Below are positions 37,149-42,032 of a stretch of DNA of 64,000 bases, one piece after another. Numbering within the stretch: position 1 is the first letter of the stretch; each line of letters opens with the position of its first letter. The notes beneath the pieces are model-generated. The model was not told where the DNA came from, made no database searches, and worked only from the letters and a program-made list of their open reading frames with translations. The translations under genes and the position numbers were made by a program. The stretch covers positions 96,001 through 160,000 of the forward strand of contig CAWFGE010000021.1 of the NCBI GenBank assembly GCA_963815195.1, written 5' to 3'. This DNA is from an uncultured Planctomycetaceae bacterium (GTDB taxonomy: Bacteria; Planctomycetota; Planctomycetia; Planctomycetales; Planctomycetaceae).

Positions 37149-38391
37149 ATGAACAGACGTGTCGTCGTGACCGGCGCTGCGGTCGTGACTGCGCTCGGAT
37201 GTGAATCGAGCGAGTTCTGGGATCGACTTTGTGCCGGGAAAAGCGGCGTGGGCGAGATCCAACGCTTCGATTGCCGAGATTTCAAAGTCAAATTCGCCGG
37301 TGAGATCTCGAAGTTCGAGGCCGTCGACCATTTGGATATCGACTCCAAAGAAGTCAAACGGCAGGACCGCTTCGTGCAGTTCGCGGTCGTGGCGTCGCAT
37401 AAGGCGATTGCCCAATCCGGAATCGATTTTTCCCAAGGCGAGCCTTACCGCTACGGCGTGATGATCGGCAGCGGCATCGGGGGCCTGGGCGAAATCGAGG
37501 AGCAGCACGCCAAGCTGTTCCACCGCGGCCCTTCGCGGGTGTCGCCGTTCATGATCCCCAAACTGATGGTCAACGCCGCGAGCGGAAACGTCTCAGTGCG
37601 GTGGGGTCTCAAAGGTCCCAACAGCGCCGTGGCCACCGCGTGCGCCTCGGCGACCAATGCGATGGGCGACGCCTTCCGCTGGATTCAGCACGGCATCGCC
37701 GATGCGATGATCACCGGGGGCAGCGAAGCCGCCGTCACGCCGATGGGCCTCTCGGGTTTCGCCCGCATGAACGCCCTCTCCACGCGAAACGACGCCCCCG
37801 AACAAGCCAGCCGGCCGTTCGACCGCGACCGCGACGGCTTCGTCCTGGCCGAGGGCGCGGGAGTCGTGGTGATGGAGGAATACGAGCACGCCAAGCGCCG
37901 CGGGCGCCGATCCTCTGCGAGGTCCTGGGCTACGGCATGTCCGCCGACGCCTCGCATATGACCGCTCCCGACCCGCACGGCCGGGGCGCAAGTTGGGCGA
38001 TGCTGGGCGCGATCCGCGATGCGGGGATCAATCTCGACGATGTGGATTACATCAACGCCCACGGCACGAGCACGCCCTTAGGCGACGTGGCCGAGACGAC
38101 CGCGATCAAAAACGTCTTTGGAGCCCATGCGAAAAACCTCGTGGTCTCGAGCACCAAGAGCCAACTCGGCCACCTTTTGGGAGCCTCGGGCGGCGTGGAA
38201 TTTGTGGCCTTGCGCTCGCCCTCCAGAACCAGGTCGTGCCCCCCACGATCAACCTGGACGACCCCGATCCCCAATGCGATCTCGATTACGTGCCCCACGA
38301 AGCCCGCGAGCGGAAACTTCGCTGCGTCCTAAAAAACAGCTTCGGCTTCGGCGGCCACAACGCCTGCCTCGTATTGGGCCGAGCCGCGTAG
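37149..38391 (+). CDS. fabF: Beta-ketoacyl-ACP synthase II (frameshifts near 37905 and 38210)
   Basis: [28 protein letters not shown], then YINAHGTST and [10 protein letters not shown] in a second frame, and NSFGFGGHN in a third. Confidence 0.95.
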
Positions 38392-38433
38392 AAAACCGCG
38401 AACGGATTCCACCGACCGGGTGAACCCTCGCGC

Positions 38434-38479
38434 AATAAAAACCGCACCGGGCGCGCAAAAAAGCTGCGCAGCGGTGCGG
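38434..38479 (-). terminator. Intrinsic terminator for a minus-strand transcript
   Basis: CCGCACCG/CGGTGCGG stem (38442-38449 with 38472-38479) with an inner GCGC stem, followed on the minus strand by TTTTTATT. Confidence 0.7.
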
Positions 38480-38735
38480 CACCGTTCGGATTTTGGGACG
38501 CCTGAACTCTTTCAAGAAGCCAAAAGGCGTCTCGCCGGGTTTCGTTCCTCTTGGAAAGGCGGCCGAAGTCCCCGGCCCGGATATCCGGTCGAGACACCCT
38601 TCGTTGGGGTGAGGACAGTTCTCGATTCCGGGCGACGCCAAAGATTCGCGAATCGTCACTTTGCTGCCCAAACTGCCGCAGCAAAGCGGCCGGCGTCCCG
38701 GAATCCCACGTGAACGTGGAATCCCAAAGTCGAGT
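38434..38735 (-). ncRNA. Candidate ~300-nt multibranched non-coding RNA of unknown family
   Basis: TATAAT on the minus strand at 38747-38742, a closing helix (38489-38498 with 38722-38731) enclosing many nested stems, and a terminator immediately after. No convincing ORF. Confidence 0.55.
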
Positions 38736-38741
38736 GTCTCT

Positions 38742-38747
38742 ATTATA
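38742..38747 (-). promoter_or_regulatory. Consensus -10 box for the candidate ncRNA
   Basis: Perfect TATAAT on the minus strand, a few nt before the 5' strand of the closing helix. The -35 is weak. Confidence 0.5.
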
Positions 38748-39158
38748 CAGGACTTAATTGCGCCACAAGGCTGCGGGATCGCGCAACATCCGCATCCGCT
38801 TGAAGATAAAGCCTCAAGCAACGTTTCTTTTTTGGCCTGTTCCCGGTCGCCGAATGACCAACCAGATTCATCAAAAAATGGGTTCTTCCGGATAATCGGT
38901 GGCAACGACGGCGGTGTGAAAGAATATCTTGTCCGTGCTCTTTCACCTCTTCTTGGGGAGGTCGGACGCGGCAGCGGCCGGGTGGGGCTTCGGCTTCACT
39001 TTTGCTGAAATCCGGAGGTAAAGTTCAAACAGAAGTCTTCCAGGTCTCGCTCGACGATTTGCCCGCATCCCGGCGGGAGCAAATTGCCTGTGCGTCATCC
39101 GCCGGGTATTTTGTTGTCTGTCACCAAAATTCGCAGCGGCCGAAAAACACGTGAGAGC

Positions 39159-42032
39159 ATGGATTTCCCCGATTTGAGGTTCACCAGCGAACTGCGCCCT
39201 TCGCAGCGGGAGATTGTGGAGATTGCCCGCCGGCAACTGGGAAACGGGCAACGGCGGTTGCACGTGGTCGCTCCGCCGGGTTCGGGAAAGACGATTGTCG
39301 GCCTCTATTTGTGGTCGCAGTTCATAAAGAAGCCCGCACTCGTGCTCTCGCCGAACTCCGCCATTCAGTCTCAGTGGGCGGACCGTGTGGAACTGTTTCA
39401 GCCGGACGGTTCCGCAAAGGCGACGCTCGCGACCACCGATTCCGAGACGCCGGGGCTGTTGACTTCGCTCACTTATCAGGCGGTGACGCTTCCTCGAAGT
39501 GGAGGCGACGATCTGGAATCCGCAGCCGTCGCGTTTTGGATCGACCGGCTGATCGAATCCGGACAGGCCGAGGATCCCGGCGAGGCCGCGGTTTGGATTT
39601 CCGATCTGCAAAAACACAATCCCGATTACCATGCCGCGCGTTTGGCCGTCTATTCCAAGCAGGTCCGCGATCAGGCGGCGCTGGACGGGAAGGCGATGGC
39701 GGTGCTGCATCAAAGCGCGCTTCTCGCGCTGGAGCGATTGCGGGACCTGGGCGTCGGCGTGATCATTCTGGATGAATGCCACCATCTCCTCGGACACTGG
39801 GGCCGCGTGCTTGCGGATGCGCACGAGTTTCTCGAACAGCCGGTCGTGATCGGGCTGACCGCGACGCCGCCGGACCGCACCGGCAAAGCGGCCGCGGACA
39901 TTGAACGGTATGACGCGTTTTTCGGCCCGATCGACTATGAGGTGCCTGTCCCCGCCGTCGTCAAAGACGGCTTTCTGGCGCCGTATCAGGATTTGGCTTA
40001 CTTCGTCCGGCCGCAGGCCGCCGAGTTGACGTTCGTTGCCAACACCGACGAGGCATTTCGGCAGATCGTGGAGGACTTGTGCCGCGAACGCCCGCGAGAG
40101 CCGGAGGACGAGGAATTCAATGGATCCGACGCGGCTCCCGGTCAAGCGCTCGAACAAATCCCGGAACCGGCTCCGCCTTTGGTCGATTGGCTCCAAACGG
40201 TTTTGCGCGAACGGCGGTTGCCAATGGGAACCGTGGCAACCTGGCTCGATTTTGAAAAGCGCGATCCGGCGTTCGCCCAGGCCGGCCGCTGGTTTCTGAT
40301 CGGACAGGAAATCGAATTGCCCGACGGCGTGCCCGAACCGGACGAACCGGCGGACGTTTCCGAAATTCCCGAGATCGAAATCCTGGTCCCCGTCCTGGAC
40401 CGCTATGTTCGCCACTGTCTCAGGCGGTCGGCTCATCGGGCGGATCAGGAGCTGGCGAAACAGGCGGTCCGGCGTCTCAGGGTGCTCGGCGTGCAAATCA
40501 CCGAAACGGGCTGCCGGGCCTGCGCTTCACCCGTGGGCCGAGTCTTGGCCTATTCCAAAGCCAAGGCCGAGGCTCTTCTGGCGATTCTTCGCGAGGAACA
40601 GCGGGTGCTGGGCGAACATCTCCGCGCTGTGGTCGTGACAGACTACGAAAGAACCTCGGCGGTCACGGCGGAGATCGATCACCTGCTCGATGCCGAGGCC
40701 GGCGGAGCGGTCGCCGCCTTCAAGATGTTGCTCAGCGCTCCCGAGACCGACGCCCTCAATCCGGTGCTGGTGACCGGTTCCAGCGTATTGGTCGATGACG
40801 ATTTGGCACCCCGGTTGTTTGCGAGAGCCGAAGCGTGGTTGTCCGCGCGGAATGACGATGTGGAGCTGCGTTACGAAATCGAAGAGGGCTTTCATGTGCT
40901 CAACGGTCGCGGCAGGGACTGGTGCCCCCGGGTCTACGTCGGGCTTCTGACCGACCTGTTTCAAGAGGGCGTGACGCGGTGCCTGGTGGGAACCCGCGGG
41001 TTGTTGGGCGAAGGTTGGGACGCCAGCAGAATCAACTGCTTGATCGACTTGACGACCGTCACGACGTCCATGTCGGTCAACCAGTTGCGCGGCCGGTCCA
41101 TTCGGCTGGATCCGGACCGGCCCCAGAAATTGGCGAACAACTGGGACGTGGTCTGCATCGCTCCCGAATTCGCAAAAGGTCTCGACGACTACGACCGCTT
41201 TCGCCGGAAGCACGAAACGATCTTCGGGGTCACGGATGATGGAGCCATCGAGAAAGGCGTCGGCCATGTCCACGCCGCCTTCACATCGATGAAGCCGGAG
41301 GGTTTGGAGCATTCCGTCGCCGCCTTGAACACGGAAATGCTCGAAAGATGCGCCGAGCGCGACAACGCCCGGCGGCTGTGGCGAATCGGCGAACCGTACC
41401 ACGCCGAGCCGATTTCGACTTTGGAGGTTCGCCTGGCCGGAATGACCGGGGGCTTCCCGCCCTTTGGCCGCTTCAAGGAGCCTTGGACGGATCGCTCGCT
41501 GACAATGGCCGTGGGAACGGCGGTCCTGAAGGCACTTGACGAAGCCGGGTTGTTGAAGACGCAGCCGCCGCTGCAAATTCGCGAGCGGGCCGGCGGCTAC
41601 ATGCGGGTGTTCTTACAACAGGCGAACCCAGCGGAAAGCGCCCTCTTCACGAAAGCCTTGCACGAAGCCTTGGGCCCGTTTCGGCAGCCGCGCTACGTCA
41701 TTCCCCGGCACGTCGATCAACGCGAAGCGACGTGGCTCTCGAAGCTGCTTCCGAATATCTTAGGCCGGTATCTCGAGCGCCGCCGGCAGGAGATGGTGAT
41801 GTTGCACGCCGTCCCTTCCGTGCTCGCCAAAAATCGGACGCGCGCGGAGATCTTCCAAAAACATTGGAATCGCCACGTCAGCCCCGGAGAGGTGCTGTTT
41901 GCCCGCCGCGGCCCGGGCGAAGAACTCGTCCGGAAAGCCCGGCGACAAAACCTCATGCCCGCCGCGCTGGGCCACGAGAAGGAAGTCTTTCTCACAATCG
42001 AGCCAACAGATCGCACGGTCTCCGGAGAATAG
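39159..42032 (+). CDS. SF2 DEAD/DEAH-box helicase (ResIII-like N-terminal domain)
   Basis: LRPSQ Q-motif, APPGSGKT, ILDECHH, GLTATP, LLGEGWD and QLRGRSIR motifs. Confidence 0.88.
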   Translation: MDFPDLRFTSELRPSQREIVEIARRQLGNGQRRLHVVAPPGSGKTIVGLYLWSQFIKKPALVLSPNSAIQSQWADRVELFQPDGSAKATLATTDSETPGLLTSLTYQAVTLPRSGGDDLESAAVAFWIDRLIESGQAEDPGEAAVWISDLQKHNPDYHAARLAVYSKQVRDQAALDGKAMAVLHQSALLALERLRDLGVGVIILDECHHLLGHWGRVLADAHEFLEQPVVIGLTATPPDRTGKAAADIERYDAFFGPIDYEVPVPAVVKDGFLAPYQDLAYFVRPQAAELTFVANTDEAFRQIVEDLCRERPREPEDEEFNGSDAAPGQALEQIPEPAPPLVDWLQTVLRERRLPMGTVATWLDFEKRDPAFAQAGRWFLIGQEIELPDGVPEPDEPADVSEIPEIEILVPVLDRYVRHCLRRSAHRADQELAKQAVRRLRVLGVQITETGCRACASPVGRVLAYSKAKAEALLAILREEQRVLGEHLRAVVVTDYERTSAVTAEIDHLLDAEAGGAVAAFKMLLSAPETDALNPVLVTGSSVLVDDDLAPRLFARAEAWLSARNDDVELRYEIEEGFHVLNGRGRDWCPRVYVGLLTDLFQEGVTRCLVGTRGLLGEGWDASRINCLIDLTTVTTSMSVNQLRGRSIRLDPDRPQKLANNWDVVCIAPEFAKGLDDYDRFRRKHETIFGVTDDGAIEKGVGHVHAAFTSMKPEGLEHSVAALNTEMLERCAERDNARRLWRIGEPYHAEPISTLEVRLAGMTGGFPPFGRFKEPWTDRSLTMAVGTAVLKALDEAGLLKTQPPLQIRERAGGYMRVFLQQANPAESALFTKALHEALGPFRQPRYVIPRHVDQREATWLSKLLPNILGRYLERRRQEMVMLHAVPSVLAKNRTRAEIFQKHWNRHVSPGEVLFARRGPGEELVRKARRQNLMPAALGHEKEVFLTIEPTDRTVSGE

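Follow-up and report, generated by a model that had tools for sequence, protein, structure and literature searches.

A multicopy structured RNA gene in a Planctomycetaceae genome, predicted to be wired to the late promoter of a domesticated phage gene set

The element in the window and its fold

The window, meaning the whole 64,000-nucleotide stretch of Planctomycetaceae DNA analyzed here, whose coordinates are used below, carries a short non-coding element on its minus strand, between fabF (37149–38391, plus strand; Pfam ketoacyl-synt), with which it is convergent, and a divergent SF2 helicase gene of the ResIII/DEAD type (39084–42032, plus strand), the 5′ part of which has no match in the three congeneric genomes G001, G002 and G003 that, together with the source genome G000, make up genus g1. 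Both neighbors lie outside the system. An earlier note on this DNA had proposed here an orphan structured RNA gene linked to fabF, and every sequence feature it listed is found where it had placed it. Neither the word orphan nor the link to fabF survives: the source genome holds six full copies (272–293 bits) and several fragments, the gene 3′ of fabF is a different one in each of G000, G001, G002 and G003, and the nearest G001 copy (85% identical) sits at a different locus. The fabF gene is read in three overlapping frames; the portal, capsid and ABC-type genes of G000 considered below are also split, their counterparts in genome G015 being single ORFs, and these splits probably reflect sequencing indels and not pseudogenes. 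The interval from the RNA promoter to the helicase gene contains a short repeat (38880–38990) with many matches in G001, and a weak upstream consensus (CCTT...GGACTTACG-like), which resembles paired IHF-type sites, is seen at ~38770–38815 and before other copies, poorly kept in the window copy.

The conserved unit spans 38769 to ~38436 on the minus strand. It begins upstream of the TATAAT regarded in the earlier note as the −10 box, with an upstream promoter box, CTTGTGGCGCAA (38769–38758), that had been overlooked there, as had the loop-loop pairing and the perfectly palindromic nature of the hairpins at 38654–38643 and 38588–38577. This box is nearly invariant in the 20 copies that we aligned and is common to the phage head and terminase operons described below. 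The downstream box, TATAATAGAG (38747–38738), has the consensus TAnnnTAGAG, with TAGGGT-A/G in the operons, and precedes a predicted RNA of ~300 nt (38737–38436, from a putative start site) with an 82-pair structure. In the comparative fold, Domain I (38728–38603) is a multibranch closed by helix P1 (38728–38722/38609–38603), in which the 5′ UUUGGGA pairs with 38603–38609 (89.9% paired), and contains the P2 hairpin (38720–38705), the P3 and P4 stems (38703–38698/38631–38626 and 38695–38692/38639–38636) and a three-way junction. The P5 hairpin (38686–38659; 95% paired, covariation UA:13/CG:6) presents the loop GGCAG (38677–38673), whose partner CUGUC (38618–38614) is presented by a GAG/CUC mini-hairpin (38623–38611); the resulting loop-loop pair, GGCAG/CUGYC, is 100% paired in 20/20 copies with one-sided changes only (GU/GC/AU), and the spacings are tight, 48–54 and 24–26 nt in the 21 copies measured. 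P6 (38654–38643) is a palindrome, GAUUCGCGAAUC, perfect over at least 10 nt in 21/22 full copies and a candidate dimerization site. Domain II comprises three hairpins, one palindromic and two long, then an A-run and the terminator. Its palindrome, CCGGAUAUCCGG (38588–38577), is almost invariant and perfect over 10–12 nt in 21 of the 22 full copies; hairpins P9 (38576–38534) and P10 (38530–38498) are 71–86% paired with two-sided changes, P10 being absent from one congener copy (L038); a nearly invariant CCGAACGG (38489–38482) follows the A-run, and the intrinsic terminator, GCCGCACC...GGUGCGG with a U-tail (38480–38436), is 96.9% paired. Just past it, read on the plus strand, GCGCAA (38430–38435) repeats the upstream box in inverted, worn form; a TGCGC comes after the U-tail in 12/22 copies versus 11/121 other terminator-like sites.

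The minus strand of 38735–38434 folds at −142 kcal/mol (z −5.6; 0/100 shuffles as good), but the plus strand of the same stretch is equally stable (−139.5 kcal/mol, z −6.2), so that folding alone does not give the strand. We assign the RNA to the minus strand because conserved G-U pairs (in the 20 copies, 64/127 is GU in 14, 19/35 UG in 15 and 283/325 GU in 15) would read as mismatched A-C in a plus-strand RNA, and because the promoter and the U-tail share this orientation in all aligned copies. Across these copies 89.7% of the cells of the 82-pair model, from which P6 is excluded, are paired, and 22 pairs carry two-sided changes. None of 500 shuffles reached this value, a comparison to be read with the model having been drawn from the same 20 copies and with related sequences being able to beat shuffles; slid controls are 36–47% paired. 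Divergence from the consensus is 10.6% in paired and 27.9% in unpaired columns, one-sided changes keep the pair in 64/208 cases (37.7 expected), and double changes do so in 45/68. Covariation among homologues, by which the earlier note had proposed to judge the RNA, is thus present above all 500 shuffles. Ten helices drawn in that note were compared with the 19 other aligned copies, where eight hold (63–95% of cells paired); its closing helix (38731–38722/38498–38489, 47% paired) and a stem at 38595–38590/38534–38529 (26%) turn out to be private to the window copy, and its cUUCGg occurs in 2/20 copies. No ORF is conserved, the best shared one being present in 2/20 copies on the RNA strand and 5/20 on the other. 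The shared promoter and fold are, as far as sequence comparison goes, well supported, and the element is in all likelihood a transcribed structured RNA. The central claim of the earlier note, a structured, probably independently transcribed and apparently undescribed minus-strand ncRNA gene, thereby stands, with no Rfam match, covariation above all shuffles and no conserved ORF.

Copies, turnover and known RNA classes

The distribution of the element was surveyed with R1, a covariance model of the 5′ domain, slightly weakened by four P6 pairs in the wrong register (17.5% paired), which was run with strict filters over 151 genomes of the family and 151 of the class. Matches number 7 in G000, 13 in G001, 4 in G002 and 0 in G003; among the family genomes matches occur in three, all of genus g1, and among the class genomes only G000 is matched. 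By blastn, 3/61 genomes have matches. Pattern scans returned 8 viral, 51 genome and 73 metagenome loci; R1 confirmed 3 of the 59 viral and genome loci, all from one named Planctomycetaceae MAG and not counted as independent, and none of the 73 metagenome loci. The phage and plasmid collections contained no match to the RNA element. G003 keeps both phage operons described below and, in an assembly 85% complete, has no match to the RNA, which suggests that the RNA is non-essential.

The 20 aligned copies are 64–87% identical (~25% difference), and their tree is star-like with end branches near 0.17, so we consider the spread within genus g1 to be old and not ongoing. Copying must nevertheless have occurred at the DNA level, because the promoter lies upstream of the transcript. 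Flanks of the copies are mostly unrelated. At orthologous sites, a copy that is full in G001 is reduced to a 5′ remnant in G000; for one G001 copy the corresponding G000 site is empty, with a 4-base overlap only. Three independent 5′ remnants of G000 stop at the P5 loop, right after GCGGCA (C8:633465, C13:1091037 and C4:89005, minus strand); in the RNA family of genome G022 this end stretch forms a perfect palindrome that is conserved. High copy number as a MITE had been named in the earlier note as an outcome that would speak against an RNA gene. The element is indeed multicopy and turns over, but its copies are old, its promoter and fold are constrained, and no target duplications are shown. 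A rearrangement hot spot can be set aside: synteny is broken at 8/9 testable copies (3/12 being untestable) versus 45/64 control gaps, taken from 20 G001 regions with gaps of 150–1000 bp. No autonomous partner with the same ends appeared in the profile search of G000 or among the promoter sites of G001, both draft genomes; a candidate suggested by three identical G001 promoter sites resolved into 3-kb near-duplicates of one remnant before thiS-thiG. These stretches (G001 L424, L425 and L431) are 99.7–99.9% identical, probably through assembly redundancy. Promoter-only sites or worn remnants also stand before host genes, among them a TPR protein gene and thiS-thiG (G000 C22:299031, C12:311628 and C15:765540; G001 L424–L426 and L429), and they may put such genes under the phage-head regulon.

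Comparison with known RNA classes gave no identity. Rfam 15 has 0 matches in the window, the best local scores being 14–15 bits against thresholds of 80–90, an outcome named in the earlier note as support for novelty; the families covered include 6S, SRP, RNase P, tmRNA, HEARO, GOLLD, ROOL, OLE, pRNA and the riboswitches. The note's statement that tRNA, tmRNA, RNase P and SRP hallmarks are lacking is borne out by ARAGORN and Rfam, neither of which gave a match. It was also right that this is no 6S-like rod: the fold is multibranched and the 6S RNA of the genome (RF00013) lies elsewhere, at G000:C10:181837-182023. A riboswitch or leader is ruled out by the convergent orientation of the genes downstream of the G000 copies (five from ORF lists, one by eye); the genes downstream of the G001 and G002 copies are unrelated to each other. 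The missing conserved short ORF disposes of a type I toxin mRNA or small-protein gene. An OMEGA RNA of IscB or TnpB, in which a variable guide comes from the flank on one side, does not fit the conserved promoter and terminator, which fix both ends, and no nuclease ORF was recognized by eye beside the copies. Nor does the element accompany every packaging system, as a pRNA-like RNA should, G003 (85% complete) having both operons and no RNA match. Qrr, Rsm/Csr and cuckoo RNAs are, like the element, present as several copies under one promoter type; the element differs from them in having no conserved seed, looped GGA or CCUCCUCCC repeats, and in being multibranched with a loop-loop pair. By analogy, the RNA would work most like an oligomeric phage-associated RNA, while lying outside every family compared. 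It is undescribed in the literature searched, for the most part open-access papers.

The promoter and the phage head and packaging genes

The promoter of the RNA copies reads TTGTGGCGCAA-N10/11-TAnnnTAGA, with a variable spacer of 10–11 bases. Its second box is TAnnnT in 17/20 copies and TATAAT in 2/20, and the sigma70-type TATAAT with a weak −35 of the earlier note accordingly gives way to a specific two-box motif of phage operons; a sigma54 reading is ruled out by the absence, judged by eye, of TTGC at the right distance. A matrix trained on the RNA-copy promoters alone, a training set that includes the six full G000 copies and neither phage operon, found 15 sites above 19 bits in G000 versus 1 in the reversed genome, namely the six full copies, five remnants, two promoter-only sites and both phage operons, where the sites lie ~60–70 nt before the genes. 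The first operon consists of head protease, cement and capsid genes behind the promoter; the second, 460 kb away, comprises HTH, ParB-like and ABC-type genes, the terminase large subunit and a lambda-family portal (PHROG/Pfam for both). No tail genes were detected in this split head and packaging set (G000 C12:651800-654604 and C12:1104240-1112255; L209, L210). Both operons have the motif in front of them in G000, G002 and G003; in G001 it stands before the capsid operon and at the matching second site. In G003 the only 2 exact motif matches are the two phage operons; because the reversed control gave 6, this evidence weighs by the position of the sites. Taken together, these matches show each copy to be a unit of predicted promoter, folded RNA and terminator, whose promoter is shared with the terminase/portal and protease/capsid operons, and we consider it quite likely that the RNA is co-induced with the head genes.

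Beyond genus g1, a relaxed family core, CGCAAC-N-GGT(A/T/G)GA, occurs within 250 nt of 14/23 protease and 7/23 HTH genes versus 75/4346 control ORFs, counts that are partly circular, since these upstream regions also supplied the motif; the survey took in 23 of 30 protease loci, weak and duplicate matches having been dropped. The contiguous cluster of G015 has the core 5 times and that of G022 has it 3 times on the cluster strand, before gene blocks in both. In most family genomes with the cluster, the core is not in excess over the reversed control. The late promoter of G015 also stands before paralogous stand-alone genes far from the cluster (L290, L310).

The cluster itself has the marks of domestication. 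The head protease is found in 92/201 family genomes, in single copy in 91, and a ThiF-like neighbor of the cluster is conserved. Contiguous clusters also contain neck and tape-measure genes, and a putative tail-tube gene, named by position only, is present in 61/201 genomes versus 92/201 for the protease, with none in genus g1 by this query, so that about one in three protease-bearing genomes has no match to it. Judged from genes alone, with no tree, the head and packaging set consists of single-copy, vertically kept genes at a host locus, as a GTA would. In RcGTA-type systems, too, the genes for head and packaging are single-copy and vertically kept, lie at split loci and share one promoter (PMC7947584), the difference being that genus g1 lacks the tail-tube gene by our query. 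In the available part of that source, a planctomycete prophage TerL is the only mention of the phylum, and the available part of PMC13626063 does not mention Planctomycetota; in the literature searched, mostly outside subscription papers, neither a GTA of Planctomycetota nor an ncRNA member of any GTA regulon is described. For the HTH protein, the likeness to sigma-4 is weak: E reaches 0.0016 at best with Pfam and stays >0.09 with Foldseek, and a fold search gave weak sigma-4 and KorA-like matches only. The HTH gene stands at the head of the terminase operon, as do the small HTH genes of the Ltr/RinA late activators, and small activators that bind upstream of terS are known (PMC3753634).

Self-pairing, proposed role and counterparts in other genera

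The perfect palindromes of P6, 10–12 nt long in 21/22 full copies, fall into six sequences, told apart by CG/GC swaps of the center, by length and by their arms; the sole copy with a non-palindromic P6 also has no upstream promoter box. Palindromes of this length are found in 0, 1 and 0 of the 22 copies in three control hairpin regions, and in 312/20000 (1.6%) random genomic 24-nt windows. P6 alone would form a hairpin of 0 to −0.1 kcal/mol and a self-duplex of −12 to −18 kcal/mol, and like variants pair best with like. When the local region is cofolded, the intermolecular pairs fall in P6 in 16/20 copies; the gain, −12.7 kcal/mol versus −9.2 for a control with a broken center, is weakly supportive. 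Template switching mutation can also make perfect palindromes. Because the palindrome is kept through the CG/GC swaps, and neighboring bases at the center have no way of pairing within a single strand, pairing between two molecules is indicated, and we lean toward the view that the RNA self-pairs through P6. Such a swap has been taken as evidence for intermolecular pairs in OLE and GOLLD, and the palindrome-preserving covariation at adjacent positions used in that work is found here too (PMC12286853).

How might such an RNA be maintained? We tentatively favor a non-essential passenger of a GTA-like late regulon, one that oligomerizes, engages the head and packaging machinery and is probably selfish. 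Transcription of the RNA would be confined to cells in which head assembly is turned on. The promoter would probably be read by the sigma-4-like HTH protein encoded at the front of the terminase operon, acting with RNA polymerase as the Ltr/RinA-type activators do. The RNA would then pair with itself via P6, perhaps with help from the second palindrome and the loop-loop pair, and the oligomer might engage terminase, portal or prohead, this being the weakest step of the scheme. An RNA made in place might favor the packaging and transfer of its own locus, so that the element would be an RNA-only satellite of the particle; such favored packaging would account for the multiplication and scattering of a dispensable RNA, for the upkeep of its fold and for its replacement from lineage to lineage. 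A precedent for coupling late transcription to packaging is provided by T4, in which gp17 binds the late sigma factor gp55 (PMC3012670). Along with this precedent, promoter sharing, domestication of the cluster, constraint on the RNA, self-pairing, and dispensability with turnover argue for the passenger. Against it stand the old, star-like tree, the absence of a link to synteny breaks and of an established target duplication, the absence of promoter excess from most cluster genomes of the family, the lack in genus g1 of a tail-tube gene for DNA delivery, the small cofolding gain, template switching, the circular relaxed motif and the weak likeness of the HTH protein to sigma-4.

Several other explanations draw on the same evidence. 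The common promoter and the palindromes would also suit an RNA that serves the host as a structural or accessory part of the particle, a pRNA-like prohead ring or a cage or cargo of the kind proposed for ROOL and GOLLD, multiplied for dosage. The loop-loop pair could form between molecules as it does in phi29 pRNA (PMC7357161), and long RNAs are found in lineages without the tail-tube gene (g1, g30). Yet G003 keeps both operons with no match to the RNA (85% complete), the copies never adjoin the operons, the sequence families differ among genera and decay to remnants is frequent. To our knowledge, TerL motors of known phages need no RNA, which also counts against a particle part, and we regard this role as unlikely. 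Alternatively, the RNA might regulate the late regulon in trans, as an sRNA that acts by base pairing or as a sponge for proteins, setting the time of lysis or shutting down host translation, multicopy like Qrr and Rsm. Several copies under one regulator, the intrinsic terminator and, in some copies, a CU-rich stretch like an anti-Shine-Dalgarno would agree with this, but CCTCC is present at that site in 8/20 copies and buried in P1 and the mini-hairpin, the GGA motifs sit in stems of the alignment, and three RNA segments of the window copy pair with protease and HTH start regions no better than with control starts (11–99% of the controls as good); a regulatory role strikes us as unlikely.

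The repeat-like behavior of the copies raises another alternative, a non-autonomous DNA element, MITE- or REP-like, that captured a late promoter and whose fold is a signal for a transposase or recombinase, the RNA being a by-product. Dispersed copies with mostly unrelated flanks, the worn inverted box at the right end (12/22), three remnants ending at the same loop and, in genome G032, units that start exactly at GCGCAAC, often after REP-like hairpins, are all in its favor. We nevertheless hold it to be quite unlikely: both promoter boxes are kept with the spacer free, as transcription expects, the G-U pairs and the loop-loop helix are strand-specific, the palindromes, in contrast to protein sites, differ from copy to copy in both length and sequence, neither the G000 profile search nor the G001 promoter sites yielded a longer element with these ends, and the copies are old yet still folded. 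Finally, the RNA might be incidental, with dispersed late promoters loading terminase via the transcription machinery and acting as packaging start sites. In favor of this, no part of the element is kept better than the promoter, which also persists in remnants, and T4 again offers a precedent (PMC3012670), but selection on an 82-pair fold with palindromes would be left unexplained, and the chance of this seems to us very small.

Phage satellites such as PICI, PLE and P4 depend on the packaging of a helper and are switched on with it, as the element would be if it is a passenger of the late regulon. Unlike the element, a 340-bp non-coding unit whose helper would be a domesticated chromosomal cluster, these satellites carry protein genes, an integrase and an origin of replication. 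ROOL, GOLLD and OLE are likewise large structured bacterial or phage RNAs of no known function, and they are homo-oligomers whose palindromic loops switch between GC and CG as P6 does; ROOL and GOLLD are tied to phages, the level of GOLLD increasing in the course of lysis (PMC12286853). In contrast to these, the element is ~300 nt long, occurs as 4–13 scattered chromosomal copies each with a late-type promoter, lies outside prophages and tRNA islands, and has no Rfam match. The packaging RNA of phi29 oligomerizes by loop-loop pairing, which recalls the loop-loop pair found here (PMC7357161), but it is essential and single-copy and belongs to a phi29-type motor, whereas the element is dispensable, multicopy and palindromic, and the motor encoded in its regulon, TerL with a lambda-family portal, is unlike that of phi29.

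The element is, on the sequence evidence, a real, undescribed, multicopy structured RNA gene that appears wired to a domesticated phage late promoter. Through one promoter, structured RNAs with no Rfam match gain a concrete context, which ROOL, GOLLD and OLE largely lack, and with a promoter and a candidate activator of a phage-derived system defined, the question of a GTA in Planctomycetota becomes directly testable. If the RNA steers packaging, GTA transfer would be non-random and open to parasites without any protein gene; should its role be structural, no earlier RNA component of a TerL-type motor is on record in the literature searched. Either way, it offers a small, covariation-backed target for structural work on RNA oligomers.

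The promoter core is in excess over the reversed control in seven other genomes (G020, G022, G032, G118, G134, G140 and G159), all 7 of which have the protease, at a nominal P of 0.004, or 0.03 by genus, with the threshold set after seeing the data. Multicopy units behind this core (G022, G032, G020, G017 and some single sites) have no match in Rfam. In G022, a unit of ~125 nt is found at 11/14 sites, with two-sided changes in 11/29 pairs and two perfect palindromes in 11/11 copies, one of them with a CG/GC swap. G032 and G134 have units of 230–470 nt with 24 and 21 matches, those of G032 showing a perfect central palindrome at 13/22 sites and, by eye, similar branching; G017 has two copies with two palindromes. 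With filters off, R1 matched none of the RNAs of G022, G032, G134, G020 and G017, its best score being 17 bits elsewhere, and these families would be analogues or too distant to be matched. Because the G020 repeats have no consistent palindrome, as is also the case in G140, and the G159 sites precede unrelated sequence, not every excess site is such an RNA. It is conceivable, although we regard it as doubtful, that Planctomycetaceae harbor a class of RNA-only satellites, structured RNA genes of 130–450 nt that carry the late promoter of the particle, self-pair through palindromes, tether their own locus to the packaging motor and so bias GTA cargo, having arisen or diverged separately in several genera.

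A few further features of these genomes deserve mention. The G032 unit, which has a second GCGCAA near its 3′ end, often starts only a few bases after REP-like hairpins (loci L294, L298, L309, L325, L329, L330 and L333), which suggests that it was moved recently by a REP-associated transposase. In G020, ~11 promoter-linked repeats (L269–L281) carry a Shine-Dalgarno-like site and a start codon, by eye with no shared frame, and in G140 nine near-identical promoter-linked units of GTCACA repeats (L360–L383) form a different multicopy family.
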